39,129 bases of DNA, from positions 1-39,129 of IMG/VR virus record IMGVR_UViG_3300037188_000033. The stretch is one strand, 5' to 3'. Shown here piece by piece: positions 14,365-30,094 of the stretch. Position numbers and translations under genes: made by a program. The notes below the pieces were generated by a model that ran no database searches, had not been told where the DNA came from, and worked only from the letters and a program-made list of their open reading frames with translations. Numbering within the stretch: the first letter of the stretch is position 1; each line of letters starts with the position of its first letter. This DNA comes from a virus (Duplodnaviria > Caudoviricetes).

Positions 14365-14584
14365 CTTTATGTCTTCTCCTAATATCTTTTAATATATCTT
14401 CAAATGAAGTAATATAAATTTCATCTTCATTAACTATAAATAGTTCAATTAAGTTACAAATAAATGCAAACGTCAAAACATTAGTTTCACCAAGCAACAA
14501 TTTATTCCAAACCTCATTAGCCATTTGCTCGGCTTGTGTTTCACATTCAATCAATTGTTTTATGGATAAATCTGATATTTTCAT
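14357..14584 (-). CDS. Small helical protein (putative paralogue family)
   Basis: 75 aa coupled (ATGA) to recT; KLLLG-ETNVLTFAFICNLI. Confidence 0.6.
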   Translation of the reverse strand: MKISDLSIKQLIECETQAEQMANEVWNKLLLGETNVLTFAFICNLIELFIVNEDEIYITSFEDILKDIRRRHKDG

Positions 14585-15471: not shown

Positions 15472-16307
15472 TAAGTTGACTCCTCTTCTTTACTAAATGC
15501 CCAAGCTGGCAGACTAATCTTCTGTACGTCTTCAGTATATCCAGGCCATTCATTATTCTTTATACATTCGGCATAAAGGATGGCTGAATCTAGATATTCT
15601 TCGCGACCTTGTGATAAAGACATTTCATCTAGTTCAAAGCAAGCTGTCAAATATGGAGCCTTATCTTCAACCACAAAGAATGCGAACTTACGTTGCTTGC
15701 CATCTACAGTTTGAAGACCATCTACTTGCATAGCTGCTTGTCTGTGATATCCAAAGTTATAAATTGATTTACTGAAATTGGAAATAGAGCTTGTTGTTTT
15801 TATTTCCATGACTATTTGGTCATTGAACACATCAGGACGTGCACGCAATGGAGTTTCAAATATACCGCCATTCCAGAATATTGATTGTTCAACTTTAGCT
15901 TCTTTTCTAAACTTACTCCAAATGGAATGTGCCTTAATAGATTCAGACATAAGCTTAATATCTTTCCATTTATCTGCACGTAATATTTCACGACCATTTG
16001 CTTCGGCTTCAGCTTTTGCATAAATCTCTTTGCCAATCTTAGTCGTAAGATTCACCTCTTCTTCCATACAATAGAATGTACTTTCAAACTTTTCTGGTTC
16101 TAATACGAGCATATGCACAGCTCTACCCATCTTATATTTCTCAGCTTCTTTTTTGGCTTCTTTTGGGTCGATCTCACGCTCTTCTATATATTCGTAATGA
16201 TAACGCTTTGGACAATCACGTAATAGTGTAATACCACTAGAACTAATACCTGCAGATGCGTGATATTCATTGATGTCGATATCGCTGTATATGCCCGGTT
16301 GTCTCAT
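15471..16307 (-). CDS. PD-(D/E)XK exonuclease (RecE/Exo VIII C-terminal, DUF3799-like)
   Basis: YH....ISSSG, GRAVH..VLEP, RARPD...EIKT, YHRQAA, FFVVED.APY, WPGY; adjacent to recT. Confidence 0.85.
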   Translation of the reverse strand: MRQPGIYSDIDINEYHASAGISSSGITLLRDCPKRYHYEYIEEREIDPKEAKKEAEKYKMGRAVHMLVLEPEKFESTFYCMEEEVNLTTKIGKEIYAKAEAEANGREILRADKWKDIKLMSESIKAHSIWSKFRKEAKVEQSIFWNGGIFETPLRARPDVFNDQIVMEIKTTSSISNFSKSIYNFGYHRQAAMQVDGLQTVDGKQRKFAFFVVEDKAPYLTACFELDEMSLSQGREEYLDSAILYAECIKNNEWPGYTEDVQKISLPAWAFSKEEEST

Positions 16308-16357: not shown

Positions 16358-16386
16358 ACTGTACGACAACGTCCGACACATGTCAA
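16358..16386 (-). promoter_or_regulatory. sigma70 promoter for the recE/recT operon with direct-repeat operator
   Basis: TTGACA-N17-TACAGT; TGTCGGAC/TGTCGTAC repeat at an 11-bp period across the spacer and -10. Confidence 0.7.
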
Positions 16387-16397
16387 GAGGTTTTTTA

Positions 16398-16538
16398 ATG
16401 AAAGATGAAAGATTAGATATAAGAATATCCAAAAAGGTTCATGATGATTTAAAAAAGTCAGCTAAATCAAAAGGTATGGTTACCAGTGCACTTGCACGCT
16501 TTTGGATTGAAGAGAAACTTAAGCGAGAAAAGGATTAG
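16398..16538 (+). CDS. Ribbon-helix-helix regulator, 46 aa
   Basis: MKDERLDIRISKKVHDDLKKSAKSKGMVTSALARFWIEEKL..., with GAGG RBS; divergent from the recET promoter. Confidence 0.75.
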   Translation: MKDERLDIRISKKVHDDLKKSAKSKGMVTSALARFWIEEKLKREKD

Positions 16539-16839: not shown

Positions 16840-17106
16840 TTAACCTCCTTTTGTTGGAAATTCACATTTATATTTATCTTGTTCGTTTTTACCAATGATT
16901 TCAAAAACGCGTACCAGGCTTTTAAAAAGGTTTGCTGCAACGAGCTTTCTATCTTCTTCATCTGAGATATGAGATAAGTAGGTCATAACAAGGCTGCCAA
17001 TCAAGTTATTGCAAATTATACAATCCTTACCCTGCATCATTTTTAGCATATCAGGTAGCAATTTATCTATTGCCGCAGATATTTCTTCTTTTTTGTCATA
17101 ATCCAT
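16840..17106 (-). CDS. Small helical protein (putative paralogue family)
   Basis: 88 aa; KMMQG-KDCIICNNLIGSLV. Confidence 0.65.
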   Translation of the reverse strand: MDYDKKEEISAAIDKLLPDMLKMMQGKDCIICNNLIGSLVMTYLSHISDEEDRKLVAANLFKSLVRVFEIIGKNEQDKYKCEFPTKGG

Positions 17107-17366
17107 TAATTTTCTCCCTTATTCCAATTTTCTGCATCCGTAAAGGCTCTTGATATGCTTTTTTTAAAAATATCCGTTAATTCATTTCTTTTCTCAAACG
17201 ACAATCTACTGTCATCTTTTACGCCTAATAAATAAAAATAAACCATCCTACTTAAAGTAATTTGAACGACCATAGTAGGTTGACCATGAAAAATTTTAGA
17301 AATTATATTTATATATTCGTCAATTTTATTAGCTAGTTCTTGTTCTCTTTTTGTAGGTTTCCTCAT
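17106..17366 (-). CDS. Small helical protein (putative paralogue family)
   Basis: 86 aa; KIFHG-QPTMVVQITLSRMV. Confidence 0.65.
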   Translation of the reverse strand: MRKPTKREQELANKIDEYINIISKIFHGQPTMVVQITLSRMVYFYLLGVKDDSRLSFEKRNELTDIFKKSISRAFTDAENWNKGEN

Positions 17367-17566
17367 TAACCCTCTCCACTATCCCTATACAAATCCAACA
17401 GCCTATCCAATTTGGCCCTATTGGCACCGAGGTACGATTTTATAAACAAAGTTAATACAGGTGCCATACCTTCGCCGCGCAAGGCTGTAACGGCTTTAAA
17501 TTCATCCTTCAGTTTAGGAGGAACATCAAGCGGTATTCTAACTCTGGTTCTAGGATAATAGCTCAT
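17366..17566 (-). CDS. RHH/ParG-like regulator, probably leaderless
   Basis: RVRIPLDVPPKLKDEFKAVTALRGEGMAPVLTLFIKSY; only 8 nt separate the ATG from a -10 box. Confidence 0.7.
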   Translation of the reverse strand: MSYYPRTRVRIPLDVPPKLKDEFKAVTALRGEGMAPVLTLFIKSYLGANRAKLDRLLDLYRDSGEG

Positions 17567-17567
17567 A

Positions 17568-17603
17568 GCGTACTAATGTACGCCGAGTGCTTCTTTCTGT
17601 CAA
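17568..17603 (-). promoter_or_regulatory. sigma70 promoter with palindromic operator over the -10
   Basis: TTGACA-N17-TACATT; GCGTAC-N4-GTACGC palindrome at 17568-17583. Confidence 0.75.
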
Positions 17604-17772
17604 GATGTTATCGATTATTTTTTAATAATTATGTTTCCCTCCATTAAGCTTAGTCACAGCCCATGGTTATTGCGTCGCAATTTTGTAAGATATTGTCCAT
17701 TAGTTATGTGAGCAATTAATGTTTGTTTTCTTTCCCATTTGAAGTTATAATATGGACACAATCTCTGTAATT

Positions 17773-17806
17773 GCCCAAGGTTATCCATATTCCTTGGGCT
17801 TTTTTT
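17773..17806 (+). terminator. Rho-independent terminator
   Basis: GCCCAAGG-N11-CCTTGGGC followed by T7. Confidence 0.65.
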
Positions 17807-17908
17807 CGAGCAAACATTATGGATGATGAACCAAAACGAACCCACTATCTGAAAATAGATGTCCAAGTCGGCAGCATTTGGCTTATCAAAATAATTATCG
17901 TTGTTATT

Positions 17909-18730
17909 CTATGCTGTCTCGCTTCTCGTATTTCTAACTAAGTCTTTCCATTCTTGAGGTCTATTTTGGGACTTAGGTATTAATTTATCTGCTTCCATCC
18001 GTTTGGTTGTCTCTTCGACGGTATTGTATGGCATGCAATAGGCCACAGAGGGCCCTTTTTTTGTTGGTAGGGCGATCATACGCTTCAAGACGCCTCGTAT
18101 ATAGGCTGGAAGATTTCCCGGCCTCTCCGGCTTCTCAGTTGAGATTTTAATAGCCTCCCGACATTTGTCTGAACCATATTGTTCAAATAAGGCCCTGGCA
18201 TCTTGACGATTGAATCCTTTTTTCATTAAAAAATCAAATTCAACAACAACCTTATCATCCCTTTCCATCTCGATATCTCCTGTTGTTTGTTTTTTAAGAT
18301 CTGTTTTATTTGTATTGTTATTATTTTTGTTATTTCTATATGGTCGCATAATGCGACTGTCGCAAAATGCGACTGTCGCTTTTTGTAACTTTCGGGAATC
18401 AATGTTATCCACACATACTTTGACTGCAAAATTTTTATGAATTGAAAATTTTAATCTTGAGCCATAAAGAGATCCCCCTCTCAAAAGTTCCATATATCCT
18501 TCTTTTCTCAATTCACCACAGACTTTGTCCCATTTACGCTTACCCCACCCGAAGTGTTCTTTTATTTGAGAAGGTCTTGGAGTCCAATTTGGCGGTAAAC
18601 TATGTAAATAACCACCTAATGCACGAGATGAATCAGAAAGATTTTTATCTTGAAAAAATTTGACTGGAAAAGTTTTATATAATTCTGGTGAGTTATCTAA
18701 TTCAATTATTGAGTTTAAATCCTGAGCCAT
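17909..18730 (-). CDS. Replication initiator (N-terminal HTH, lambda O-like organisation)
   Basis: LSDSSRALGGYLHSLPPNW.......HFG.G......V..ELRKEGY HTH, an N/K-rich linker and C-terminal NLPAYIRGVL. ATG 18730 has an AAGGAA RBS, and the gene contains iterons. Confidence 0.75.
   Translation of the reverse strand: MAQDLNSIIELDNSPELYKTFPVKFFQDKNLSDSSRALGGYLHSLPPNWTPRPSQIKEHFGWGKRKWDKVCGELRKEGYMELLRGGSLYGSRLKFSIHKNFAVKVCVDNIDSRKLQKATVAFCDSRIMRPYRNNKNNNNTNKTDLKKQTTGDIEMERDDKVVVEFDFLMKKGFNRQDARALFEQYGSDKCREAIKISTEKPERPGNLPAYIRGVLKRMIALPTKKGPSVAYCMPYNTVEETTKRMEADKLIPKSQNRPQEWKDLVRNTRSETA
18280..18413. other. Replication origin: AT-rich tract, iterons and DnaA box
   Basis: GCGACTGTCGC at 18353 and 18369, with degenerate copies at 18337 and 18385 (16-bp period); TTATCCACA at 18405-18413; A/T tract at about 18280-18340. 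Confidence 0.7.
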
Positions 18731-18759
18731 AAACTTATTCCTTTGTTGCCAAATAAATA

Positions 18760-18788
18760 TTGACAAACAACAGGAACCTTCATAAAAT
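18760..18788 (+). promoter_or_regulatory. sigma70 promoter antisense to the rep leader
   Basis: TTGACA(18760)-N17-TAAAAT(18783). Confidence 0.7.
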
Positions 18789-18794
18789 GCTCGG

Positions 18795-18882
18795 GTCTGT
18801 GGAGCATTGACAGAATTTTTGAAGGTTCCTGTCATTCGAAATGAAAAAAAGCCCCGATCTAATAAGTCGGGGCTTTTGTTTT
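18795..18882 (+). ncRNA. Putative antisense copy-control RNA (about 85 nt)
   Basis: Bounded by a consensus promoter and the AAAAGCCCCGA/TCGGGGCTTTT terminator; complementary to the rep leader. Ends are estimated. Confidence 0.5.
18844..18882. terminator. Bidirectional Rho-independent terminator
   Basis: AAAAAAAGCCCCGA-tctaataag-TCGGGGCTTTTGTTTT gives a U-tract on both strands. Confidence 0.75.
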
Positions 18883-18921
18883 ATAGCCTAAAAATTAAAG
18901 CGTGTATAGTCCCAAATTTCA

Positions 18922-19006
18922 TTGACATACCTTTTTGTATTCGTTATGGTGATTTTGCTTATTGAAAAGCATAATCGCCCCAGAGAGAGATTTTTGGGGT
19001 TTTTTT
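18922..19006 (+). ncRNA. Second promoter-hairpin-terminator unit (putative sRNA of about 50 nt, coordinates include the promoter)
   Basis: TTGACA(18922)-N17-TATGGT, then hairpin GATTTTGCTT/AAGCATAATC, then GCCCCAGAG...TTTTGGGGT plus a T-run. Confidence 0.4.
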
Positions 19007-19044
19007 AATGTTATGTAATAAAATATGCTAATCAAATATTAGAG

Positions 19045-19086
19045 AAGCCCTAGAATTTATTCACGAGATAGTTCTAGGGTTTTTTT
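19045..19086. terminator. Stem-loop terminator at the end of the 19085-19417 gene
   Basis: AAGCCCTAGAA...TTCTAGGGTTTTTTT. Confidence 0.55.
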
Positions 19087-19417
19087 ATACTATATTTTTG
19101 AGTAAATGTTTAAGCCTTTCTTCAGTTCCCTCTGATTTTTCTATAACGAAATGTTCTACAACTGCCCAAATTAATTTCTTTAGATTATTTATATCTGTTG
19201 TATTAGGATAATGAGTCCTAATTTTACCAGGTCTTTCATATGGTTTTAAATTATATGCCCAGTTTTCTAGTTCGCTTGCTAAATATTGCGGCTTTCCTTT
19301 AAGTGTACCGGGTTTTCGTTTTGGGAAGCCAGGCAATTTTACTAATTTATACCATTCTGTAATACCAACTCCCACAAACTTTTGTGCTTCTGTTACAGTT
19401 AACATTAATGTTTCCAT
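19085..19417 (-). CDS. AlpA/excisionase-like HTH DNA-binding protein
   Basis: MLTVTEAQKFVGVGITEWYKLVKLPGFPK...QYLASELENW; GAGGAG RBS. Confidence 0.7.
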   Translation of the reverse strand: METLMLTVTEAQKFVGVGITEWYKLVKLPGFPKRKPGTLKGKPQYLASELENWAYNLKPYERPGKIRTHYPNTTDINNLKKLIWAVVEHFVIEKSEGTEERLKHLLKNIV

Positions 19418-19439
19418 AATTTCTCCTCTTTAAAAAATT

Positions 19440-19519
19440 TGGTTCCCCAAGCCGGATTCGAACCGACACTCACAGCAGAATTATTAGTTCCATGCTCTGG
19501 CCATTTGAGCTATTGAGGA
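19440..19519 (-). tRNA. tRNA with AAT anticodon (nominally Ile), atypical
   Basis: Cloverleaf: acceptor TCCTCAA/TTGGGGA, D stem GCTC/GAGC, anticodon arm TGGAA-CTAATAA-TTCTG, 8-nt variable loop, T arm GTCGG-TTCGAAT-CCGGC, then A73-CCA. Confidence 0.75.
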
Positions 19520-19522
19520 ATA

Positions 19523-19598
19523 TGGCTCCCCAAGACGGGCTCGAACCGCCGACCTAGTGATTAACAGTCACTTGCTCTACCGGCTGAGCTATTGGGGA
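19523..19598 (-). tRNA. tRNA-Asn(GTT)
   Basis: Canonical 76-nt cloverleaf: acceptor TCCCCAA/TTGGGGA, anticodon arm AGTGA-CTGTTAA-TCACT, G73-CCA. Confidence 0.95.
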
Positions 19599-19603
19599 AT
19601 TAT

Positions 19604-19876
19604 CTAGTTTCCTGGATATTGTAATATATTAAACTCTCCAAACTCATTCATATCAACATATTTCGGAAAACAACGATAACATCCGAAATAATATTGCTTT
19701 TGTAGATATTTAGCTTTCACATATGCATCATATTTTTTTGGTCCAATCCACATATCCTGCTGACAATACTCACAGGGAAGTTTTATAGCTAAAGATAAGT
19801 CTGGAACGCCATCAGGAAAATCTTTTACAGGAATGCAAGGCAATGCTAGAAACTGTTTCTGTTCTTTCTTAGCCAT
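19604..19876 (-). CDS. Zinc-finger hypothetical protein
   Basis: CEYC...CYRC; AGGAGG RBS. Confidence 0.65.
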   Translation of the reverse strand: MAKKEQKQFLALPCIPVKDFPDGVPDLSLAIKLPCEYCQQDMWIGPKKYDAYVKAKYLQKQYYFGCYRCFPKYVDMNEFGEFNILQYPGN

Positions 19877-19938
19877 TTAACCTCCTGTTAATAAATTCGT
19901 TCTTATAATTTTACATAAAAAGTGCATTACAAATAGCA

Positions 19939-20202
19939 TTACATCACTTCCCCAAGAGACCGCATGAGATGTGACTTGTCGACCTTTAAGCCGTGCTTAA
20001 TTAAAGCCTTAATTACATGAGTATTTGTCATAACTTTTTGGCTATAATTGTTCATCTCTTTTCGTATCTTATTTAAATTGCTTTTATCGATTGGCCCTAA
20101 TCGGAATGAACACATGAACCATTCCTTTTTAGGTTCTTTGAGGTTCAGTTTCTCTACTCTAGGCTTAACACTAAACTCCTTAAGTTGTTTCTTTTTTGCC
20201 AT
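19939..20202 (-). CDS. Small DNA-binding partner of ParA (type Ib ParB/ParG-like, probable RHH)
   Basis: Overlaps the parA 3' end; basic N-tail then MCSFRLGPIDKSNLNKI....TNTHVIKALI. Confidence 0.6.
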   Translation of the reverse strand: MAKKKQLKEFSVKPRVEKLNLKEPKKEWFMCSFRLGPIDKSNLNKIRKEMNNYSQKVMTNTHVIKALIKHGLKVDKSHLMRSLGEVM

Positions 20203-20989
20203 TTATCTTCTCCAATATTTCCGATGTTAGTTGATTGAAATCTTTTATAGCTGGACTATCCGCATCGAAAGTGTAAATACTTTCTTCATTTATTTGGGCT
20301 TTGTTAATCGCCTCAACTTTCTTGATAATGGTTTTTAATACCATATTTCTATAAGTTGAATGTTCTAATGCATGCTCAATACTATTGTTAGTTATGGAGG
20401 TTCTCACATCAAAACAATTACGAAGAATATGATATTTCATTATGGGAGAATCCAGGAAATCATCGTCTTTAATTTCTTTTATCAAATTAACTAAATCTCT
20501 AATTCCTTCCAAAGCAAATCGGCCATAAGTTATGGGTATTATGATATGGGTTGCCGCATAAATAGCATTTGAAAGCAAAACGCCGAAGGTAGGAGGGCAG
20601 TCTATTATTACGAAATCAAATAGGTTTCTAACTTTTTTTAGGCAGTTAAATAATATTTTCTCTCGATGAAATCTAGTTATTGCATGCTCAGCAGCTATAG
20701 CCAATCCTATATTGGAACTGATAATTGAAAGATTTTTAATAGGTACCTTAAATGGGTCAGTAGCCGGGTGAATTATATCCATTATGTTAGCATTTTTAAA
20801 GTTAAAAATCTGTTCAATTCCAAGACAAGAAGCTGGGCTTTTATTATAAATAAGTGAAGAATTTCCTTGCGGATCTAAATCTATTAAAAGAACATTATTG
20901 TTCTCTAAAGCCAATGAATACGCCAGGTTTGTGGAGGTAGTTGTTTTACCAACTCCGCCTTTTTGTGATGCGAAAGATAATATTTCCAT
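20180..20989 (-). CDS. parA: ParA/Soj family partition ATPase
   Basis: SQKGGVGKTT, VLLIDLDPQGN, FDFVIIDCPP; no N-terminal HTH (type Ib). Confidence 0.92.
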   Translation of the reverse strand: MEILSFASQKGGVGKTTTSTNLAYSLALENNNVLLIDLDPQGNSSLIYNKSPASCLGIEQIFNFKNANIMDIIHPATDPFKVPIKNLSIISSNIGLAIAAEHAITRFHREKILFNCLKKVRNLFDFVIIDCPPTFGVLLSNAIYAATHIIIPITYGRFALEGIRDLVNLIKEIKDDDFLDSPIMKYHILRNCFDVRTSITNNSIEHALEHSTYRNMVLKTIIKKVEAINKAQINEESIYTFDADSPAIKDFNQLTSEILEKINGKKETT

Positions 20990-21023
20990 AAACTCCTTTT
21001 TAATAAAATCGTACTTAAAAAAT

Positions 21024-21081
21024 GCATTACAATTTTAATGCGCTAGATTAGTTGCAGATAGGGTTATGTGTCAAGTATAAT
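21024..21081. promoter_or_regulatory. Overlapping divergent promoters (parA and the DUF1640 operon) with palindrome
   Basis: Minus strand TTGACA-N18-TAATCT; plus strand TTGCAG-N18-TATAAT; GCATTA-N6-TAATGC at 21024-21041. Confidence 0.55.
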
Positions 21082-21103
21082 TCTGGCGAAGGAGAAGATT
21101 AAT

Positions 21104-21301
21104 ATGAGTTACAAAGATAGTTTGACAATATATGAAGAGCTTTTGGAAGGTGGATGTACCGAAGCACAAGCAAAGATACAGGCGCATCAATTAGGTGCAG
21201 TTACAGATATCATGGGAAAGATTGAAAAAGATTTAATATGGATGAGAGTAATAGGAGCTGGCATGATTGCAGCTTGCTTTGCGACTTTATGGAGGGGATA
21301 A
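21104..21301 (+). CDS. DUF1640/CCDC90-like short membrane-anchored protein
   Basis: MSYKDSLTIYEELLEGGCTEAQA...C-terminal TM; AAGGAG RBS. Confidence 0.7.
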   Translation: MSYKDSLTIYEELLEGGCTEAQAKIQAHQLGAVTDIMGKIEKDLIWMRVIGAGMIAACFATLWRG

Positions 21302-21304
21302 AGG

Positions 21305-21502
21305 ATGAAGCGTTTAGATACATTGAAAATATATGATAACTTTATTCTGGCCGGATTTACTAAAGAACAATCAAGTGCTTTAGCTCGTGCTTTAAATAAC
21401 CTTTTTATAGACATAATTAATGAAAAAGGTTTAGAAGTATCTTCATTGCATGAAAAATATATTAATGACCTTGAAAGAGTTTTAGAAAATATTGGTGATT
21501 AA
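21305..21502 (+). CDS. DUF1640-like head-domain protein without TM
   Basis: LDTLKIYDNFILAGFTKEQSSALARAL. Confidence 0.65.
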   Translation: MKRLDTLKIYDNFILAGFTKEQSSALARALNNLFIDIINEKGLEVSSLHEKYINDLERVLENIGD

Positions 21503-21513
21503 AAAGGACCAAG

Positions 21514-21804
21514 ATGCCATTCCTGATTAATTTCTTTAAAGATTGCGATAGGGAGAATAGTATGAACGATTATATAGATAGGTTTTCAGTTGGACCACCA
21601 GGATTTCAAAGTTTAACTGTCAAAATCAATAATGAAAATATAGGTCTTAATATGCTATTATGCGTTACTTTTAGTAGTATATTTGCTATTAGTGTACATT
21701 ATGCATTTTGTGGAAATGCTAATTTAAGAATGTATGCTGGAATAATAGCAGGATCTTGCATTGGGAATATTTTAGCTGAAATATATAAAGCGTTGAAAAA
21801 ATGA
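21514..21804 (+). CDS. Small membrane protein (2 TM)
   Basis: Two hydrophobic segments; start uncertain. Confidence 0.5.
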   Translation: MPFLINFFKDCDRENSMNDYIDRFSVGPPGFQSLTVKINNENIGLNMLLCVTFSSIFAISVHYAFCGNANLRMYAGIIAGSCIGNILAEIYKALKK

Positions 21805-21851
21805 AATTCTTAAAATTTATAGTTGAAAAAATGAAATTCTTAAAATTTATA
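21792..21851. repeat. 30-bp tandem duplication spanning a gene start
   Basis: GTTGAAAAAATGAAATTCTTAAAATTTATA occurs twice exactly. Confidence 0.85.
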
Positions 21852-22067
21852 ATTGAAAGTGGAATAACTTCTTTATTTTGTTGTCTATGTGGTATCTATT
21901 CGGCTATTTATGCATTTAATGATCATAGTTATTGGTGTCTTCTCCATGCTTTCTGCGGTGGTGCTTGTCTGATTATTGCGATTTATTTCTTTAGTCGTTA
22001 CAGAAGCAATAGGGAATTTGATCGTATATGTGAAGAATTGGATAGGAAGCATAATGAGACATCCTGA
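21801..22067 (+). CDS. Cys-rich small membrane protein (2 TM)
   Basis: Two TM segments and a charged C-tail (holin-like topology). Confidence 0.55.
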   Translation: MKFLKFIVEKMKFLKFIIESGITSLFCCLCGIYSAIYAFNDHSYWCLLHAFCGGACLIIAIYFFSRYRSNREFDRICEELDRKHNETS

Positions 22068-22239
22068 TTACTTAAATATATTCTTTGGCGGATTGATTTA
22101 TAGTATTATTCCATGCTCAGCTAGATATGCTATATCTGGCGTTCATGATTTTAGAAGCTATGCGCTCTTAATATGTTCAGGTTTTATTATAAGTAATGGT
22201 TTACTAGTATTCTTTAATTGGATCGATAGAAGATACTAA
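22054..22239 (+). CDS. Small membrane protein (2 TM)
   Basis: MRHPDYLNIFFGG...; AGGA RBS. Confidence 0.5.
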   Translation: MRHPDYLNIFFGGLIYSIIPCSARYAISGVHDFRSYALLICSGFIISNGLLVFFNWIDRRY

Positions 22240-22430
22240 TCATTCTTAGAATCACATCCTTTGCAAACTAACTTAGTTTTAGAGTCACTATAATCTTTAG
22301 CATTGAAGAATTGATTGGCTTTATATTGTTTACATTCATGGCATCTCATAACGACAAAATCATAAGGTGTTTTTAGTTCACCGACTTTTTTTGGTTTCTT
22401 ATATGAAATTTTCTCATCTGTATCATTCAT
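22236..22430 (-). CDS. Small zinc-finger protein
   Basis: CHECKQYK...CKGC. Confidence 0.6.
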   Translation of the reverse strand: MNDTDEKISYKKPKKVGELKTPYDFVVMRCHECKQYKANQFFNAKDYSDSKTKLVCKGCDSKND

Positions 22431-22698
22431 TTGTTACGCCTTCTATTTTCTTCAAAAGATTAATGGGAACATTACTATGTCCAGAGATAAATTCATTAGC
22501 ACCTTCTTCAATTGGACCGTTTTTATCTATCAAACCGAAAGCTCCAAATACAATAATTGATATAGCCAAAAGATAGCTGAAGCCTACCACAATTATGGTA
22601 AATCTTTTACTAATAAACGCTAAGAGAAATGTCAATATCAGGATACATTGAGTCATATAACTGTTCCTTGTCGAAATCAGTTTCGTTATCACAAGCAT
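22423..22698 (-). CDS. Small membrane protein
   Basis: Two hydrophobic segments; the true start may be downstream (MTQCIL). Confidence 0.45.
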   Translation of the reverse strand: MLVITKLISTRNSYMTQCILILTFLLAFISKRFTIIVVGFSYLLAISIIVFGAFGLIDKNGPIEEGANEFISGHSNVPINLLKKIEGVTNE

Positions 22699-22825
22699 AG
22701 GTTATAGGTGTTCTATATTCTGTAAAATATAAAGAGAAGGTCAATAACATAAACGCGAGAAAGCATATCATTACAAGCGCCAGAATGTCCGATAGTACTC
22801 TAAGGTTATAATTATATTTGCCCAT
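22610..22825 (-). CDS. Single-TM hypothetical protein
   Basis: AGGA RBS; hydrophobic N-terminal segment. Confidence 0.45.
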   Translation of the reverse strand: MGKYNYNLRVLSDILALVMICFLAFMLLTFSLYFTEYRTPITYACDNETDFDKEQLYDSMYPDIDISLSVY

Positions 22826-22856
22826 GGTTAATTCCTAATACTATCGGACATCTAGT

Positions 22857-22952
22857 TTAGTAACAATCTTTCCCTTTTTCTTTCTTTGGTTTTTTACTAA
22901 AAGGTGTTTTAGAACCTTTGCTATCTTTTTTCATTCCTTTACCCATTGCCAT
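22857..22952 (-). CDS. Lys-rich microprotein (31 aa)
   Basis: MAMGKGMKKDSKGSKTPFSKKPKKEKGKDCY*; AAGGAG RBS. Confidence 0.6.
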   Translation of the reverse strand: MAMGKGMKKDSKGSKTPFSKKPKKEKGKDCY

Positions 22953-22972
22953 GATAAACTCCTTAATATTGG

Positions 22973-23140
22973 TTAATAACTATCGTCTTTGCTATTGCTA
23001 TCTTTCTTTACAGATTTCTTAGCATCCTTTGCGTCAATTTTCTTTGTATCTTTATTGTATCCTTCGACTTTTCCTTTAACGGAAAACTTCTTAGGTAGTT
23101 TCTTTGTTTTAGCTGTTTCTAATTTGCTTGCCTTTTTCAT
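22973..23140 (-). CDS. Lys-rich small basic protein
   Basis: MKKASKLETAKTKKLPKK...; AAGGAG RBS before ATG 23140. Confidence 0.6.
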   Translation of the reverse strand: MKKASKLETAKTKKLPKKFSVKGKVEGYNKDTKKIDAKDAKKSVKKDSNSKDDSY

Positions 23141-23151
23141 TAATTGCTCCT

Positions 23152-23511
23152 TTAACAAATTTCCTTTAATGTAACCCATATTTCACCTGGCCCTAAAGTA
23201 CGTGGTTGTCGTTCAACATGGATAATATCTATCTGAGAATCATTTAGAAAATATCCTGCAAACTCCATGGCATCGAAAGTTACTTTGAGGATGTTATCCA
23301 AATCGCGCTTTCGTCTGTCTGGTGGATGCGCCATTATTGAAACTGACAATCTACCTTTAAGGGGAATTCGACCACCCAAATTCTCTATATAAGATAATTG
23401 TCTAACAGTTCTCTTATATAAATGGGCTTCTTTTGAAACTATAGTGCGGCCCCTCACATTCCGCCAATAACGATTGGCGGAAGGAGGCCAAGGCAATTCA
23501 ACATCAATCAT
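23152..23511 (-). CDS. rusA: Holliday junction resolvase RusA
   Basis: LPWPPSANRYWR...PPDRRKRDLDNILK...D......NDSQID. Confidence 0.92.
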   Translation of the reverse strand: MIDVELPWPPSANRYWRNVRGRTIVSKEAHLYKRTVRQLSYIENLGGRIPLKGRLSVSIMAHPPDRRKRDLDNILKVTFDAMEFAGYFLNDSQIDIIHVERQPRTLGPGEIWVTLKEIC

Positions 23512-23671
23512 TTGAGCTCTTTTTTAAATCATCGGCAATTTGCTTGTCCATTACTTCAAGCATATATTTACATTCAGCTAAACGTCCACAACGTGCATTA
23601 TGTTCCGCTAATGATTGACTGATTGCTTCTTCCACCATTTTGATTCTTGCTACTAAATCATCTCTATTCAT
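23504..23671 (-). CDS. Small coiled-coil protein (55 aa)
   Basis: MNRDDLVARIKMVEEAISQSLAEHNARCGRLAEC...; AGGAG RBS. Not in the ORF track. Confidence 0.6.
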   Translation of the reverse strand: MNRDDLVARIKMVEEAISQSLAEHNARCGRLAECKYMLEVMDKQIADDLKKSSND

Positions 23672-23682
23672 AAAAACTCCTA

Positions 23683-25602
23683 TTAAGTGATAGATGTACT
23701 TGCCACTATATAATATGTGGTTCCATCTATTGAAATAGCAAGTTTTTTGATTACTCCACCAGGAGTTCCAGATGCACCAGAAGTGACATAAGTAGGCCCG
23801 ACAAGGCCGGCATTGGTATTTAATAAAAGAAGATTTGTAGCTCCACCTACTAAATATATTTGACCACCAAGAATAGCGGCCGTGGTATTTGTCATAGCTA
23901 TACCATACATTCCAGTAGTATTTGTAAGAGTACCTGAGGTAGCACCGTAATCTCCCCAGAGAGGAGCCGTCTGTCCGGCATTAATGGTAGCGGCTGAAAT
24001 ATCTAATTGACCAAACACCCCAGCATTCCAAGAAGAGCCAGACAATGTGCCTGTTGGAATTAATTTACCTTCAACACCGTATAAGAACCCACCACTAGCT
24101 CCAACATAATTTACTACACCTCGTACGCCAACCAAATTGCCTGATGTCATCGTAGTAGCTAACTCTGAAACCTGACCAGTTATAGAGCGAATCGTACCAG
24201 GGGTTGCCGATGTGGTTGACGCAGTATTTAATGATGGTAAATTTTGTGATAGTGCACCTGAACCTCCGAAAACACCTATATTTCCAGGAGTACCACTTCC
24301 ACCGCCGCCACCTGCTGATGCTGTTGCAATGTACCCAATAACAGAAACGCCGGGGTCAGCCGATGCCAAAATAGTTAAAGTTCCGGCAGATGGAGTAACT
24401 TTTTGTATAAGATGCGCGCCTGCTTGAGACTTAAAATCTGCAGTCACAATACTTGATGCTGTAATGCTCGCATCTGAAATTACAATAGAGGCGAAACCAC
24501 CTGCATAACTATAATTTGCAGCGTGAAGACCCAAAGCACTTATGTTACCTGGCAACATTGCTGCATATTGCATAACGGCTACACCAGGGCCAGAAGTTAC
24601 GACAAATGTTATTGTCCCAGCTCCAGCCGTTGCAGTATAGATTTCTGATGGAGTTCCTTGACTTGCGAAATTGGCAGTTACCACCATGCCTGCGGTAATA
24701 TTTGGATCAGCTATTACGAATGTTGCAGGGCCACTACTGAATGAAACTTTACCAACAACTACACCTGCGGTTAATAAAGCTGCCGATGGCGTGAAGGAAA
24801 TATATTCAAGAACCCCAGTTGAAGGTGCTGTATCTGTTGTAACGGTAAATGAACCTGCGGCTGGTAATACTGTTTGGATAGTTACAACGTTTGCACTACT
24901 GACAAAACGTGCAATCACTACAGAGCTTGTAGTAATAGCGGAGTCAGTTATAACAGTCGAAGCAGTTGGAAAAGAACCAGCGATAGTTGCAGAATGCACG
25001 CTTGAACCACCACCACCACCTGCTATAAGGGCAGCTACACTGGCTGCGGTTATACCAGAATCAATCATTACACCCTGGGTTCCACTGGCAACTGGAAAGT
25101 CTCCAGAAACAAATGGATGAGTACCTGGAGCAATTAGCAATTGAGCATTAGCATTGCCTGGGTCTGGAATAACAATAGTAGTATCTTGCCCCATATTGGC
25201 ATTAGCTAATAAAGTATCAAAACCGCCTGTGCTTGGAATAGCTTGGATGGTTAAAGATCCATCAGCTGGGTTTGCCGTAGCATCAATAGTAATGTGACCT
25301 ATAAAAATTGAATTTTCTTCGGTTGGGGTAATTAAACTATAAGCTAAATCGCCAGGAAGTCCCGTAACAGCGACTTGATACCAGGCAGTTGCAATAGTGG
25401 CATTAGCTGCCATGGAGTTTTGTGTGATTACAGCGACCAAATCGCCATTACTAAGACCTGGCAATAATCCTTCATGAATAGGATTTGTTAAATAGCCGGT
25501 TGTGGTAACGGTGGCTATGGTATCGTTTGTTTTAAGAAAAGCTAAATTAGGTCTAATCCCGGCTAATCCTGGGAAACTTACTTGTGATGATAAAATAGGC
25601 AT
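23683..25602 (-). CDS. Virion fibre/decoration protein with three tandem beta-rich repeats
   Basis: 639 aa, G/A/T/S-rich; repeats ITDSAITTSSVVIARF, IADPNITAGMVVTANF and ISDASITASSIVTADF; ends KLAISIDGTTYYI. Confidence 0.65.
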   Translation of the reverse strand: MPILSSQVSFPGLAGIRPNLAFLKTNDTIATVTTTGYLTNPIHEGLLPGLSNGDLVAVITQNSMAANATIATAWYQVAVTGLPGDLAYSLITPTEENSIFIGHITIDATANPADGSLTIQAIPSTGGFDTLLANANMGQDTTIVIPDPGNANAQLLIAPGTHPFVSGDFPVASGTQGVMIDSGITAASVAALIAGGGGGSSVHSATIAGSFPTASTVITDSAITTSSVVIARFVSSANVVTIQTVLPAAGSFTVTTDTAPSTGVLEYISFTPSAALLTAGVVVGKVSFSSGPATFVIADPNITAGMVVTANFASQGTPSEIYTATAGAGTITFVVTSGPGVAVMQYAAMLPGNISALGLHAANYSYAGGFASIVISDASITASSIVTADFKSQAGAHLIQKVTPSAGTLTILASADPGVSVIGYIATASAGGGGGSGTPGNIGVFGGSGALSQNLPSLNTASTTSATPGTIRSITGQVSELATTMTSGNLVGVRGVVNYVGASGGFLYGVEGKLIPTGTLSGSSWNAGVFGQLDISAATINAGQTAPLWGDYGATSGTLTNTTGMYGIAMTNTTAAILGGQIYLVGGATNLLLLNTNAGLVGPTYVTSGASGTPGGVIKKLAISIDGTTYYIVASTSIT

Positions 25603-25712
25603 GGAAAGCGCTCCTTGATAAATGTATAATTGCGAAGCAAAATCCAGCTTTTGGACTTTGCAGTAAATCCTATTTAAAGTGTAGTAAAGGTATTGAGAAA
25701 TGCTATTTAGTT

Positions 25713-25934
25713 GTGAAACTTATGAGTGAACCCAAAACCAAGCTCAAACCATTAGATTTAACTTTCAAAGATAAGGATGCGTCCCAATCTAAAGCTGAAA
25801 AGAGATTAAACGAGAAACAATTAAGAATTATGGAAACCAGAATGAAAAAACAAATGGAAGCACTTTATGATAGCGAATCTAGTGATGACGATGCAGACAA
25901 AGAAGTGCAGAGCATATTGAAGGTAAAGTTATGA
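25713..25934 (+). CDS. Hypothetical protein
   Basis: Charged ORF coupled (ATGA) to the next gene; the start may be ATG 25722. Confidence 0.55.
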   Translation: MKLMSEPKTKLKPLDLTFKDKDASQSKAEKRLNEKQLRIMETRMKKQMEALYDSESSDDDADKEVQSILKVKL

Positions 25935-26134
25935 CAATTACAAACCCAATGACATCTATCGCAACTGAAGAAGCTTTATTGGATATTGTTAAAAGCATGC
26001 AACGAAGGATAGGCGAATTGGAGCTGAGAATAGAAGTTTTAGAACAAGCTTCCTTCAAACATGAAATGACATTAATTCAGCATAAGAAAGCAGCCGAGAA
26101 TTTTATAGAGCGATATAATATAGTCGATAAATAA
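25931..26134 (+). CDS. Coiled-coil hypothetical protein
   Basis: 67 aa; IGELELRIEVLEQ heptads. Confidence 0.55.
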   Translation: MTITNPMTSIATEEALLDIVKSMQRRIGELELRIEVLEQASFKHEMTLIQHKKAAENFIERYNIVDK

Positions 26135-26161
26135 GTTCGCATAATGTATGTTATGTTAAAT
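26134..26161 (+). other. dif-like XerC/XerD recombination site
   Basis: AGTTCGCATAA-TGTATG-TTATGTTAAAT versus E. coli dif GGTGCGCATAA-TGTATA-TTATGTTAAAT; the XerD arm is identical, 25/28 overall; intergenic. Confidence 0.88.
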
Positions 26162-26179
26162 TGTATGGAGAAATAGAAA

Positions 26180-26353
26180 ATGTTTGAAATATTATTTGAT
26201 ATCTATAAAGTAGTATGTTTCACGTGCTTAACTTTGGTATTAGTTAGTTCAACTATAGCTTTCATGCATTATCTTTTGAAGGATTTATTTAGAAAGCAAC
26301 CCTTGAAAGATATTTACGACTACCGCAAGAAACACTCCACCAATTCCGATTGA
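26180..26353 (+). CDS. Small single-TM protein (57 aa)
   Basis: MFEILFDIYKVVCFTCLTLVLVSSTIAFMHY...; GGAG RBS; its 3' end overlaps the convergent gene. Confidence 0.4.
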   Translation: MFEILFDIYKVVCFTCLTLVLVSSTIAFMHYLLKDLFRKQPLKDIYDYRKKHSTNSD

Positions 26354-26551
26354 TAAGTATTTGTAACTTAAATCCATTTTTAAAATTATTTTATCCATTG
26401 CATTAGCAAAGTCATTTCTAATGTCTTTAATATCTTGTTTAGTTACTTGAATAGAGTCTGAAATAGCTCTGGCTTGAGCATGCGCTTGTTCTTTTGAAAT
26501 TCCAGCAGCTAATAAATTATCATATATTTCTAATGCATCTTTATGGCTCAT
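26285..26551 (-). CDS. DUF1640/CCDC90-like membrane-anchored coiled-coil protein
   Basis: MSHKDALEIYDNLLAAGISKEQA...VTKQDI...C-terminal TM; GAGGTG RBS and an upstream extended -10 TGATATAAT. Confidence 0.75.
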   Translation of the reverse strand: MSHKDALEIYDNLLAAGISKEQAHAQARAISDSIQVTKQDIKDIRNDFANAMDKIILKMDLSYKYLSIGIGGVFLAVVVNIFQGLLSK

Positions 26552-26591: not shown

Positions 26592-27275
26592 TCATACCGA
26601 TGCTTTCAGTCCCATATTGTAATAATCTCTAGCTCCGGTTCCATAAGCATCTTTGCGATTTCTGCCAGCTAATAAAGCTTTTACGCCTCCAGGTCCGGCT
26701 AAATGAGCGGCTGCTATCATTGCATTAATTTGTTGTTGTGGGGTATCTTTTTTGATTAATCCGAGTTTAGTTAATGTCTTTTTATTGGAATCCATAAATC
26801 TTTGCATGGCAGAATCTTGAATGCCTTTATCTCCCAAGAAAGCTTGCTTACCTCCAGGTATTGTCCAGTTTTCTGCATTATTTAAAGCTTTATTTCCAAG
26901 CTTTCCAGCACCTGGTTTTAAAAGCCCAACGGTTTCTAATGCAGGCGCACCAAATTGGTAGGCTCCCGTAAAACCTAAATTATTAGTAACACCGTAATTA
27001 CCGCCAGATTCACGTTTTCTCAATATATCCATCAATGAACCGCCATTAGCTGCGGGCATTTGTTGTTGCCTCATATTACCACTTTGTAATATTTGGCTAA
27101 AATCATTGCCTTGAGCAGGATTGAAATTATTTTGCATTTGTTGTTGCTGTTGTTGGTTTTGTTGAATAGGATTCCACAAATTTTGAAAGCGTTGGAAGTA
27201 ATCTTGAACGGGCCGTTGTTGACGTCCATATCCTTGGTCGTTTCCTATATCAAAGTTGTATGTTTGAATTGGCAT
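26592..27275 (-). CDS. Lysozyme/lytic-transglycosylase-like protein with Q-rich N-terminus
   Basis: RESGGNY (candidate catalytic Glu), GAYQF, QD..M, AAHLAGPGG, DAYGT. Confidence 0.7.
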   Translation of the reverse strand: MPIQTYNFDIGNDQGYGRQQRPVQDYFQRFQNLWNPIQQNQQQQQQMQNNFNPAQGNDFSQILQSGNMRQQQMPAANGGSLMDILRKRESGGNYGVTNNLGFTGAYQFGAPALETVGLLKPGAGKLGNKALNNAENWTIPGGKQAFLGDKGIQDSAMQRFMDSNKKTLTKLGLIKKDTPQQQINAMIAAAHLAGPGGVKALLAGRNRKDAYGTGARDYYNMGLKASV

Positions 27276-27284
27276 TTGAAGTTC

Positions 27285-27401
27285 CTATTTTTTCTTCTTA
27301 GGCTTAATACCTTTCATGCCTTTATGCATATTTTCAAGTTTCTCTATTGCTTTCATTTCAGCTTTTTCATGCTTTAAATTGTTTGATTTAACTTTTTTCA
27401 T
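27285..27401 (-). CDS. Lys-rich microprotein (38 aa)
   Basis: [38 protein letters not shown]; ATGA-coupled. Confidence 0.55.
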
Positions 27402-27544
27402 TTCTTTGCTCCTTTTTTGGGTTTAGATTTTCCAGCTTTTGACATTGCAATTGCAATACTTTGTTTCTGAGGCTTTCCCGCATGCATTTCTGTGCGAATA
27501 TTTTCAGATATAACTTTTTTAGATTTTCCGGATTTAAGTGGCAT
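27398..27544 (-). CDS. Small basic phage protein (48 aa)
   Basis: [41 protein letters not shown]..., a pattern common in tailed phages; AAGGAG RBS. Confidence 0.7.
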
Positions 27545-27556
27545 CGTTGACTCTCC

Positions 27557-30091
27557 TTAACACCAAATTGATCCTATTATCCCAGTTAAATAATTGACAC
27601 TATTTACTGATGTCGTTCCATAAAACGTTGTTGATCCTGTTGCTGAGGATATTTCTAACCAAGCTAAATAATTATTACCGATTGGTGGATATCCTTTATA
27701 GAAAGAAGAAGCGGCGGTAGCTTGTGTATTACTAGCCATTTGAGTACTTCCTAATAAATTTGTTGTGCTAATAGATGTTGTTGAATTCAGTGCTACCGCA
27801 GTTCCTATTGAAGCGGCTGATGAATTACTGGCGGAACCATTTGCAATTCCATTAACAATGCATTCAGAAACTCCTATGAAGAAGTTTAATTGATTTGCTA
27901 CATTCGCATTAGATTGCCTCCATGTGGCAGTTGTATATGTCCAGGAAGCAGTTGGATCATTTCTTATCATATCTTTTTCTACGCGATTATAATAATTAGA
28001 TAAAAATCTATTGGCAACGCTATCTTCCGTTTGACCAGATACCCCAGTTGTTTGGAATGAACCCAAATAGCGTTTGCCTAAATCTCCTGATTTGCAGTAG
28101 ATACCATCTTGGAAAACTATAGCAGTAGCTCTAGTTGTTAAATTTGTCCAAGCAACTAACTGTAATGTTAGTGTGCCTCCTCCGCTATCATAACAAAACA
28201 CATCATATCCTGTAACAGTTGTAGCAGGAACTGCAATACTAAGCTGAGCATTTTGATAAAGTTGCCATGTTCCTGAAGTAAAAAGGGCAATGTAATTTCC
28301 CTTATATGGAACACAATATATGGTGGTTGCAGCTAAAACATCAGCGGTAGTGACGGGAACTGCTGTGGTTAATGATAATCTGAATTGACAAAATGAATTT
28401 ATTAGTGCACTTATAGTGCCAGTTGTGGTAATTGTTCCACCACCCAAACCTACTCCAGTTGCAACGCTTGTCACTGTTCCGGTTCCAGGGGCAGATGAAG
28501 CAATAGTAATGGTCCCTGCACCTGGAGTAATAGTTATGTTAGCGCCAGCCGTTAAAGAGGCTGCCACAGGAGTTTCTCCAGTTGATCCAATAATAATCTG
28601 GCCGTTAGTCATAGTGCCACTCATGACTGGAACGCCTGTCGATGTTGTAACTAAAGTTGCGGAATTGGCAGTAGCTAATCCCGCTATCACATTATTCGCA
28701 GAGGAATAAAGCAACTGATTAATAGTGGAAGTTGCTGGCCATGTTGTTGTTGACCATAATGGTGCAGAAGATGCGCCTGATTGTATCATCTGATTAGCGG
28801 TTGCAGTTCCTGCAAGAATTGCCCCTGCGGTTGCAGTGGAATAGAATATGCCGCCATTAGACGCTGTTAGATTCGCATTGGTACCACCATAAGCTAAAGG
28901 AATAACAGAACCGTTCCAAACGCCTGTTGTTATAGTTCCTAATGTTGTTATTGAAGTTTGTCCAACATAAGTTGCAGCTATATCGATAACGGGCGTAGCC
29001 CCCCCGGTGGATGTAATTCTATTTACTGTTCCGGAAACAGAAGTTACAGTGCCACTTCCTAATGATACTGATGACCATGTAATACCATCATTGGTTAATT
29101 CAGTGAGTCCGGTTGTTGTATTAAATCTTATTGTTCCTGCTCCTCCCGCTTCCTGTAAAGTAGTTCCAGCAGGTAAGGTAACCCCGCCTGTTCCAGGCAA
29201 TATAGGATTATTAGCAATTGAGATTACAGGTGTAGCACCGCCTGTACTTGCTATTTGATTGGCTGTGCCACTTACGCTAGTCACTGTTCCAACAGTCGTC
29301 GATAAAGTTCCGGATGTTGGAAAAATTACAGCAGTATTGCCGACAAGTGTCCCAGTGAATGTATAAGCGCCAGAAAAAGCAACATTGCCGCCAATTGTAA
29401 TTGTGTTACTACCATTATTGATTCCTGTTCCGCCATAAGTTGGGCCAATTATGCTGCCATTCCATGTTCCAGTTGTGATTGTACCGAGAGTGGTTATGCT
29501 CGTTTGACCGATATATCCAGGGTCAATACTAATCGTTGAAACCGTTCCTAAAGTTACTACATCTATTTGGCCGGGAGTTCCAGCGACGGTATAACTTACG
29601 CCGGTATTAAATGCCTGAAAAACAATAGGACTTATACCTATTGCCGATACAACTGCAACTTCAATCCATTGAGTATTATCATTTGTAAAGCCATTCAATA
29701 TGGTAAAAGTGCTTCCTTGATAAACTTGTGCAGGGGTATTGTAATCTACTGAACGGGTTAAGACCCAATTTACGGACGCTGAACCAACTGTAGTTATTGT
29801 ATATACACCGTTTTGAAGAGCGCTTGCTTGATTCTTGACTAGAACCCTAGAGCCCAATGGAGGATTAATTCCATCAACTAAGAATGCCGCCATTGCGCCA
29901 GAATTTGTTAATGTAGCGCCTACACCATTTGTTCCATTATTATAGACAGCAGTTAGATTAACTGTAGTAGCGGCAAAAACAATAGGTTGTAATGTAGAAA
30001 ATTGAGTGTCTTGGCCATTTCTAAGACCAACTAAAATATCGCCAGCAATAATCTGACCACCGGCATTAAATTGACTGAATTTAGTTGGCAT
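27557..30091 (-). CDS. Tail fibre / receptor-binding protein
   Basis: 844 aa; RVLVKNQ....QNGVY...WVLTR..D domain, repeated GQTSITTLGTITTG.WNGS and GTVTSVSGT...STGGATPVI, C-terminal RYLGSF. Confidence 0.8.
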   Translation of the reverse strand: MPTKFSQFNAGGQIIAGDILVGLRNGQDTQFSTLQPIVFAATTVNLTAVYNNGTNGVGATLTNSGAMAAFLVDGINPPLGSRVLVKNQASALQNGVYTITTVGSASVNWVLTRSVDYNTPAQVYQGSTFTILNGFTNDNTQWIEVAVVSAIGISPIVFQAFNTGVSYTVAGTPGQIDVVTLGTVSTISIDPGYIGQTSITTLGTITTGTWNGSIIGPTYGGTGINNGSNTITIGGNVAFSGAYTFTGTLVGNTAVIFPTSGTLSTTVGTVTSVSGTANQIASTGGATPVISIANNPILPGTGGVTLPAGTTLQEAGGAGTIRFNTTTGLTELTNDGITWSSVSLGSGTVTSVSGTVNRITSTGGATPVIDIAATYVGQTSITTLGTITTGVWNGSVIPLAYGGTNANLTASNGGIFYSTATAGAILAGTATANQMIQSGASSAPLWSTTTWPATSTINQLLYSSANNVIAGLATANSATLVTTSTGVPVMSGTMTNGQIIIGSTGETPVAASLTAGANITITPGAGTITIASSAPGTGTVTSVATGVGLGGGTITTTGTISALINSFCQFRLSLTTAVPVTTADVLAATTIYCVPYKGNYIALFTSGTWQLYQNAQLSIAVPATTVTGYDVFCYDSGGGTLTLQLVAWTNLTTRATAIVFQDGIYCKSGDLGKRYLGSFQTTGVSGQTEDSVANRFLSNYYNRVEKDMIRNDPTASWTYTTATWRQSNANVANQLNFFIGVSECIVNGIANGSASNSSAASIGTAVALNSTTSISTTNLLGSTQMASNTQATAASSFYKGYPPIGNNYLAWLEISSATGSTTFYGTTSVNSVNYLTGIIGSIWC

Positions 30092-30094
30092 TGC

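Follow-up and report, generated by a model that had tools for sequence, protein, structure and literature searches.

A probable plasmid prophage with P22/Sf6-type virion genes, ParA, predicted antisense control of rep and a XerCD-type dif site

Here we describe a 39,129-nucleotide viral DNA (Duplodnaviria; Caudoviricetes), the whole of IMG/VR record IMGVR_UViG_3300037188_000033 and hereafter the window, which combines P22-type virion genes with a ParA partition operon, a replication gene (rep) under predicted antisense control, and a dif site. Its gene content suggests that it is probably a P22/Sf6-type phage that persists as a low-copy plasmid prophage, with host XerCD resolving its dimers. 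We favor this reading because of the ParA kit, the controlled rep, the intact intergenic dif with an atypical base, and the absence of ParA from two integrated relatives. A low-copy circular prophage had been proposed in the first-pass annotation; given ParA and its partner, the controlled rep, the lack of a recombinase and the intergenic dif it is still the best reading, but integration at dif had not been weighed.

The record is a complete circular or permuted phage genome, and its terminal repeat upholds the circularity claimed at first pass in this sense (Table 1); assembly circularity alone does not tell plasmid DNA from permuted virion DNA. Scans against Pfam and PHROGs, covering 59 of the 133 listed open reading frames (ORFs; the non-nested likely genes), named a P22-like portal (PF16510, E 1.6e-76), coat (phrog_283), scaffold, terminase, head closure, RecT, exonuclease VIII, RusA, a methylase and ParA. 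The best solved-structure matches were a "gene 5" capsid (5l35) for the capsid and a "gene 3" portal (7sfs) for the portal—chains that we take to be from Shigella phage Sf6. These matches confirm the virion genes as P22-type. A full virion gene set is present in the 39-kb genome, no tape-measure or sheath profile was found among the 59 scanned ORFs, and the genes point to a short-tailed particle.

The assignment of ParA is secure (AAA_31), and its best matches in PLSDB are plasmid ParAs, from Ca. Megaira, Rickettsia felis, Skermanella and Vibrio (40–43%). The small gene overlapping the end of parA also stands as a real gene—a similar ORF follows ParA in four relatives, at 21–26% identity—but the ribbon-helix-helix fold first given to its product stays tentative, since the protein has no Pfam match and its low-confidence structure model no fold match. 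RepB and RepC homologues gave no Pfam match in the window. The partner would bind the repeats found at both ends of the par operon, and ParA and partner together would segregate the plasmid.

Comparison with 89 relatives (E ≤ 0.001) places the start of rep at 18730, replacing an earlier call at 18835. The structure model of Rep has a winged-helix N-terminal domain, a disordered linker and a helical C-terminal domain; its fold matches are weak (best E 0.05) and are to DnaB-N, RepA_N and RctB. The Rep profile also picks out the reps of four relatives (G016, G034, G023 and G032) and of an integrated one, G630, discussed below. Of the iteron/DnaA-box origin proposed at first pass, the palindromes and the DnaA box are indeed found in rep, but there is no P1- or F-type iteron array; on its sequence, the origin is small, intragenic and lambda-O-style. 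A lone DnaA box is at chance level (0.47 expected), but its placement 25 bp from the repeats is not. Among relatives, perfect boxes number 4–6 in each of G001–G003 (0.5 expected), where they gather in an O-like gene and ahead of parA, and the single boxes of G004, G043 and G046 lie inside or about 145 bp beyond the rep-like gene; the single boxes of ten other listed contigs were left unplaced. No helicase, loader or primase was named in profile searches of the window, and for this reason we propose that the initiator, bound to the palindromes in its own gene, would act with host DnaA at the adjacent box to load the host replisome.

The antisense-type rep leader holds up as a prediction. Its promoter is the strongest match between 16 and 26.6 kb, on the strand opposite rep, and the predicted RNA ends at the hairpin at 18844–18880; the scan's total of 45 sites is the chance number, and only score and placing are informative. 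The leader folds beyond its shuffles (z −6.0). Once the antisense-paired part is blocked, the ribosome-binding site is far less often unpaired (mean probability 0.05 instead of 0.46), a drop that 2% of 200 shuffles equal. On this folding prediction, pairing of an antisense RNA of about 85 nucleotides with the rep leader would release the strand that covers the ribosome-binding site, keeping copy number low. The units at 18922–19087, upstream of the rep leader, possibly encode more small RNAs. Weak hairpin matches below the Rfam cut-off were rejected as chance; at the gathering score only tRNAs appear.

The dif site was likewise verified, with one mismatch to the search pattern and no match in 100 shuffles. 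It lies 7.4 kb from rep with both arms intact; no XerL arm occurs in the window, and no shortened XerL-type site inside rep. A survey of 401 genomes from the class of G028, a Legionella genome discussed below, gave 118 dif matches (≤3 mismatches) in 117 genomes. None of the 118 has G as the last hexamer base, as the window does, and 14 have identical arms with A; the counts were made by eye, in a class that may not be the phage host's. Two of the 117 genomes, G085 and G342, are unpublished, and neither is among the 14. Vibrio cholerae dif1 reportedly has the same G, so G can be a host base. In a plasmid prophage the substrates of XerCD would be two phage dif copies, so that dimers are resolved, and a host dif with A as its last hexamer base may be a poor partner for the phage site, which has G at this position on the XerD side. 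Replicons sharing a cell are reported to avoid fusion via central-hexamer differences (PMC2731167; papers given by PMC number are cited here and below for their available parts). Legionellales have a XerL-type site instead (PMC9765430) and in Rickettsiales the XerD arm differs (PMC2731167); because of these differences, the host is likely another XerCD proteobacterium from neither order.

The exact phage dif was found in no other viral contig, and GC skew does not put dif opposite the origin. In the best-matching metagenome run, from peat and perhaps the source of the record, one contig runs through dif; contigs drop rare forms, and the run is not independent. A related strain in run X4 has different DNA in place of ORF 25931–26134 (near 26130–26303). 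The dif centre there is flanked by the ends of two short X4 contigs, and 10 foreign, non-dif-like letters stand on one of them; both are single low-depth contigs and were rejected as a junction.

A six-frame profile search of the kind proposed at first pass gave no match (E ≤ 1) to the tyrosine and serine recombinase families PF00589, PF00239 and PF07508, nor to the repressor domains S24 peptidase (PF00717) and HTH_3 (PF01381). The absence of a recognisable integrase is thereby upheld, as is that of a cI-type repressor; the wider claim of no repressor fails, as an Arc-like candidate exists at 16380–16538, kept at 39–41% in G001–G003. The tyrosine integrase and cI/Cro immunity region of Lederbergvirus were not found in the window. 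In the cycle that we envisage, injected DNA would circularise, probably via the RecE/RecT pair, and the task of cI, repression of the lytic promoter, would fall to the Arc-like protein.

The window belongs to a large, uncultured capsid family. At least 2,500 capsid homologues were found, the best 120 of which (62–82% identity) are essentially unnamed; identity to cultured phages is about 25%, and no PLSDB plasmid matches the capsid. In PLSDB the portal has a single match, a classical P22-like prophage in excised form that carries integrase, Cro/CI and DnaB. Of the 80 viral loci that passed the capsid scan, the 22 on the longest contigs went into profile searches, along with 12 of 21 loci from a capsid scan of genomes; scans of viral contigs with the portal or Rep alone found no matches. 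Twenty metagenome loci were not extended to whole contigs, and two relatives inside long archaeon and acidobacterium contigs (G027, G035) were excluded from counts as possible mis-joins. Some phage-sized contigs came under the names of metagenome-assembled genomes (MAGs) of Saccharibacteria, archaea and Bacteroidetes; these names were rejected, since mis-binning is likely. The integrase catalytic domain is missing from the 22 virus records and 4 further records, resolvase from all 26, and integrase matches from 10 phage-sized MAG contigs; G030, among these ten, holds a small gene resembling a resolvase. G004 carries a 139-residue integrase fragment, Arm-binding (PF13356).

ParA occurs in 5 of the 22 capsid-selected virus records, and a ParA-led, capsid-independent scan found it with a small partner in 4 of 80 loci (G040, G041, G043 and G046; the capsid of G041 is distant). 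The carriers are scattered on a quick capsid tree and their ParAs are of three types, which suggests that ParA may have been gained repeatedly. The nearest long relatives, G001–G003 (capsid 73%; G001 and G002 near-identical), have a non-orthologous ParA that adjoins a 484–501-residue protein with relatives on Legionella and Piscirickettsia plasmids. This ParA, the plasmid-type protein and toxin-antitoxin genes, which are placed comparably to the window's own modules, and the DnaA boxes therefore point to plasmid modules swapped in more than once. G001–G003 hold several such toxin-antitoxin genes, a gene that we presume to be VapD/Cas2-like, and both O-like and plasmid-type replication candidates. 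A different replication candidate of 313–335 residues, divergent from parA, is found in G041 (16973–17980; weak IncFII RepA match, E 1.7e-4), G043 (17009–17950) and G046 (8365–9309), and G023, a relative lacking ParA, encodes a KfrA_N plasmid protein (G023:C28 5357–5692).

The scarcity of these modules across the family bears on whether the window is instead a lytic or carrier-state phage, whose ParA and dif are recent pick-ups or lytic aids and whose circle is a permuted virion genome. Many complete relatives lack ParA, integrase and dif, several have primase- or helicase-like genes, dif is rare in relatives, and the IMG/VR record names no host; we nevertheless consider this improbable given the intact par operon with flanking repeats, the antisense rep control, the Arc-like repressor candidate, the outer-membrane cargo gene, the lack of an own helicase, and a ParA with partner kept across distant relatives.

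Other relatives are integrated. A scan of Legionellaceae scored 203 of 206 genomes (three unscored) and gave three strong capsid matches. G028:C27 48.2–89.2 kb is a 41-kb prophage of Legionella maceachernii ATCC 35300 (capsid 60%) with a palindromic site and a degenerate copy at its ends, between which rep is split. A recombinase at G028:C27 80512–81729 is 57% identical to the host chromosomal XerL—itself matching a Table S3 entry (PMC9765430) over the 70 residues printed—and the prophage also has a small serine resolvase. G630:C1 1,738.55–1,774.20 kb is a 35.6-kb prophage with one intact site, one degenerate site and a truncated rep. Neither has ParA, and in each the site falls within rep. 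Judged by dyad symmetry and the description in PMC9765430, their ends are XerL-type dif, and on this analysis both use the strategy of LME-1, an integrase-free podophage with a dif mimic that integrates at dif via host Xer (PMC9765430, PMC12407071) and whose repO is disrupted when integrated (PMC12407071). Table S1 of PMC9765430 has a Legionella chromosome with a non-intergenic site adjoining a putative phage replication gene, and such Legionella prophages may therefore already have been noticed. The relatives are thus neither integrated only at non-dif sites nor only lytic, the two patterns named at first pass as counting against a phage-plasmid.

Sites of both kinds also occur outside these prophages. 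XerL-type palindromes are found in G007 and G033 (none in 40 shuffles), and G017, a fragment of 26 kb with a RecT 68% identical to that of the window, has a XerCD-type site at 364–391. G007 is circular, with ParA and an Arc-type partner; of its two XerL-type sites (18150–18179 and 32786–32815), a full palindrome stands clear of long genes and a half-degenerate one lies inside rep, and G007 is a candidate dual-lifestyle phage. The window may likewise be an integrative element exploiting Xer, inserted by host XerCD at chromosomal dif or alternating between states, with ParA, the antisense leader and the Xis-like protein serving the excised or transient circle. We regard this as the main rival, though an unlikely one. 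G028, G630 and LME-1 sit at XerL-type dif (for LME-1, PMC9765430, PMC12407071), dif has been captured repeatedly (XerL-type in G007 and G033, XerCD-type in G017), G007 combines ParA with a site in rep, and an overlap mismatch can also stabilise the integrated state, arm changes having been shown in LME-1 (PMC9765430). In the window, however, the arms are intact and the site is intergenic, so that insertion would leave rep on; a six-frame search found no XafT-like DUF3653 factor, both integrants lack ParA, and the best-matching metagenome contigs hold no junction at dif.

A last rival arises from the DNA between par and rep. The first-pass inventory of 17909–26161 was right about par, rep and dif, but overlooked two tRNAs and an AlpA/Xis-like gene there, as well as the Arc-like candidate outside that interval. 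The anticodon AAT (Ile) is unusual in bacteria, and the tRNA bearing it is perhaps a diverged duplicate of the adjacent tRNA-Asn; relatives of the AlpA/Xis-like protein are found in other loci. A former tRNA-targeting prophage that has lost its integrase, and integrates at tRNA-Asn with a helper only or not at all, could account for the Xis-like gene adjoining tRNA-Asn in the window and G004, the latter keeping its PF13356 fragment. This seems to us very improbable: the tRNA is whole, tRNA kinds across the family are many, the window holds no integrase piece, and ParA and dif are left unexplained.

Several observations weigh against a plasmid prophage. Rep has no relative in PLSDB, and the integration-cut rep of G630 belongs to the same initiator family (E 5e-13); for these two reasons Rep looks like a phage initiator under predicted plasmid-like control rather than a plasmid Rep, and rep and origin are not plasmid-specific. 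A like antisense promoter near rep was seen, weakly, in one of seven relatives checked, which leaves the antisense switch without comparative support. The plasmid-maintenance kit is not "complete", as it was first called, because no toxin-antitoxin pair was found in the window. Of 40 random AT-rich windows, 5 contain a 17-mer that recurs within 1.5 kb, as in the par repeats; the figure covers one recurrence and not two colinear blocks. ParA is absent from five of eight complete capsid-selected records and from all 10 phage-sized MAG contigs, and a canonical, XerCD-type dif occurs in 1 of 35 relatives (G017; one match in 40 shuffles). The window has a single copy of the FtsK-orienting polar sequence (KOPS) motif, enterobacterial plasmids of 30–100 kb tend to be without Xer sites (PMC11724359), and the Xis-like gene next to a tRNA looks like an integration relic. 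Finally, G028 and G630 show that integration at dif occurs within the family, and ParA is compatible with it, since G007 pairs ParA with an LME-1-like half site in rep and a second, full palindrome.

As a wider picture, which we put forward only tentatively, a very large integrase-free P22/Sf6-type podophage family, the window among its members, may have abandoned its own recombinase and copy its host's dif, XerL- or XerCD-type, with the place and form of the site setting lifestyle: shortened within rep, the phage would be integrated with replication off; intact and intergenic, with a swapped-in ParA, it would be a phage-plasmid; and G007 could switch. The family would include a second Legionella prophage lineage distinct from LME-1, and would reach Legionellaceae and probably other protist-associated bacteria.

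The remaining genes of the window are listed in Table 1; the gp4 and gp10 names for virion genes are ones that we presume to apply. A word search found no relative of the outer-membrane protein at 12441–13157, distant copies of whose gene are seen in L083, L319, L361 and L363, and the Atlas taxa gave no pointer to a host. The sole lysozyme-like gene of the genome is at 26592–27275, and the likely endolysin family that adjoins rusA in nine relatives had no match in the window (compare 22236–23511). Four short paralogue-like genes (12010–12291, 21068–21301, 21305–21502 and 26285–26551) encode a helical N-terminal part and a hydrophobic C-terminal end; they are repeated in many relatives, have no profile match, and are presumably CCDC90-like.

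Table 1. Features of the window, with coordinates in the 39,129-nucleotide record.
Feature	Coordinates	Strand	Basis or remark
Terminal direct repeat, 131 nucleotides, 1 mismatch	1–131 and 38999–39129		Circle of about 38,998 bp
Adaptor-like gene	74–1102	−	Position and conservation in relatives
Decoration-like gene	within 74–4071	−	Position and conservation in relatives
Major capsid protein	2053–3303	−	Profile, fold match
Scaffold	3364–4071	−	Profile
P22-like portal	6061–8163	−	PF16510, 7sfs
Terminase large subunit	8168–9769	−	Profile
Likely terminase small subunit	9974–10315	−	Profile
Outer-membrane beta-barrel gene, likely lysogenic-conversion cargo	12441–13157	+	Profile
RecT-like annealase and exonuclease VIII (RecE-like)	14581–16307	−	Profile; putative dimer-generating role
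Promoter-like site (10/12) for exo/RecT operon	16358–16386	−	Back to back with Arc-like gene
Arc-like ribbon-helix-helix repressor candidate	16380–16538	+	phrog_582, E 4.6e-4
Replication initiator candidate, 273 residues	17909–18730	−	phrog_186, E 6.7e-9; DnaD/lambda-O-like
16-bp palindromic repeats, two and a partial third (2⅓), predicted initiator sites	18343–18379		Inside rep, linker DNA
Sole perfect DnaA box of the genome	18405–18413	+	25 bp from palindromes
Antisense promoter (11/12) facing rep leader	18760–18788	+	Predicted RNA about 18795–18880
rep leader stem-loop	18770–18832	−	3' arm predicted to cover ribosome-binding site once 5' arm is blocked
Hairpin flanked by T runs, likely a terminator in both directions	18844–18880		Sequence
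Second antisense promoter-like site (10/12) and terminator-like hairpin	18922–19007	+	Third hairpin 19040–19087
AlpA/excisionase-like helix-turn-helix (HTH) protein	19085–19417	−	phrog_66 E 0.002, phrog_668 E 9e-4 (weak)
tRNA, anticodon AAT (Ile), resembles adjacent tRNA-Asn	19440–19519	−	ARAGORN, Rfam
tRNA-Asn (GTT), whole	19523–19598	−	ARAGORN, Rfam
Two repeat blocks downstream of par genes, candidate centromere	19888–19943		Match 21000–21035, same order
Partner, 87 residues, overlaps parA end; predicted centromere-binding protein	19939–20202	−	Recurs in relatives
ParA, a Walker-type ATPase of type Ib size lacking an N-terminal HTH	20180–20989	−	AAA_31, E 1.4e-45
Upstream copy of par repeat blocks, candidate operator/centromere	21000–21035		Sequence
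XerCD-type dif, 28 bp (11+6+11)	26134–26161	+	Intergenic; G is the last base of the central hexamer
Lysozyme-like gene, fibre genes, ejection-protein-like genes, head-closure (gp10-like) gene 37410–39056	26592–39056	−	Profile; order kept in relatives

If the plasmid prophage is real, a P22/Sf6-type virion joins the catalogue of phage-plasmids, and a 39-kb replicon uses a chromosome-type dif in a size class mostly without Xer sites in enterobacteria (PMC11724359). Between integrated prophage and phage-plasmid the family provides intermediates found in nature; in the available part of a 2024 review, this transition had not been observed as phages gaining plasmid genes (PMC11652158). The open-access literature yielded no P22/Sf6-type phage-plasmid with ParA and dif, nor this family; the podoviral tables of PMC7969092 may bear on novelty. 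Integrase-free genomes are usually scored as lytic in metagenomes, and two temperate routes that such scoring misses are apparent in this family. Its members further indicate that P22/Sf6-type prophages exist in Legionellaceae, from which a single tailed phage has been described.

With P22/Sf6-like phages (Lederbergvirus and kin) the window shares the portal, scaffold, coat, gp4/gp10-like and ejection-gene order, an O-like initiator with an intragenic origin, and an Arc-like protein; it differs in having no integrase, cI/Cro, helicase or loader by profile search and a capsid about 25% identical to those of cultured phages. Type Ib partition systems (TP228 ParFG, pSM19035) have a ParA without an N-terminal HTH, followed by a small basic protein, with repeats flanking the operon. 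The window shares this ParA form, the small partner and the flanking repeats, whereas its partner has no ribbon-helix-helix fold match. In the repABC plasmids, so far as the available description goes (PMC3155836), par genes also lie upstream of rep on one strand, with an antisense RNA in the rep leader and the origin inside rep; however, the window's initiator is unrelated, its small partner is not RepB, it has a DnaA box and repeats, tRNAs and an HTH gene stand between, and the predicted antisense effect is on the ribosome-binding site rather than a terminator. Phage-plasmids of the P1, N15, SSU5 and F116 groups have in common with the window virion genes, partition and replication control without an integrase. 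They may carry dimer-resolution functions (PMC7969092); the window uses a host-type dif and not its own recombinase. That phage-plasmids are myo- or siphoviruses, as the first-pass annotation had it of the best-studied ones, is true of 95.9% of those classified, but podoviral ones are already recorded, in the F116 community (PMC7969092). LME-1, compared here by its description only, is T7/Carin-1-like (PMC12407071), whereas the family of the window matches P22/Sf6-type portal and capsid profiles; and the window's site, in contrast to that of LME-1, is XerCD-type and intergenic, with intact arms, and is accompanied by ParA.

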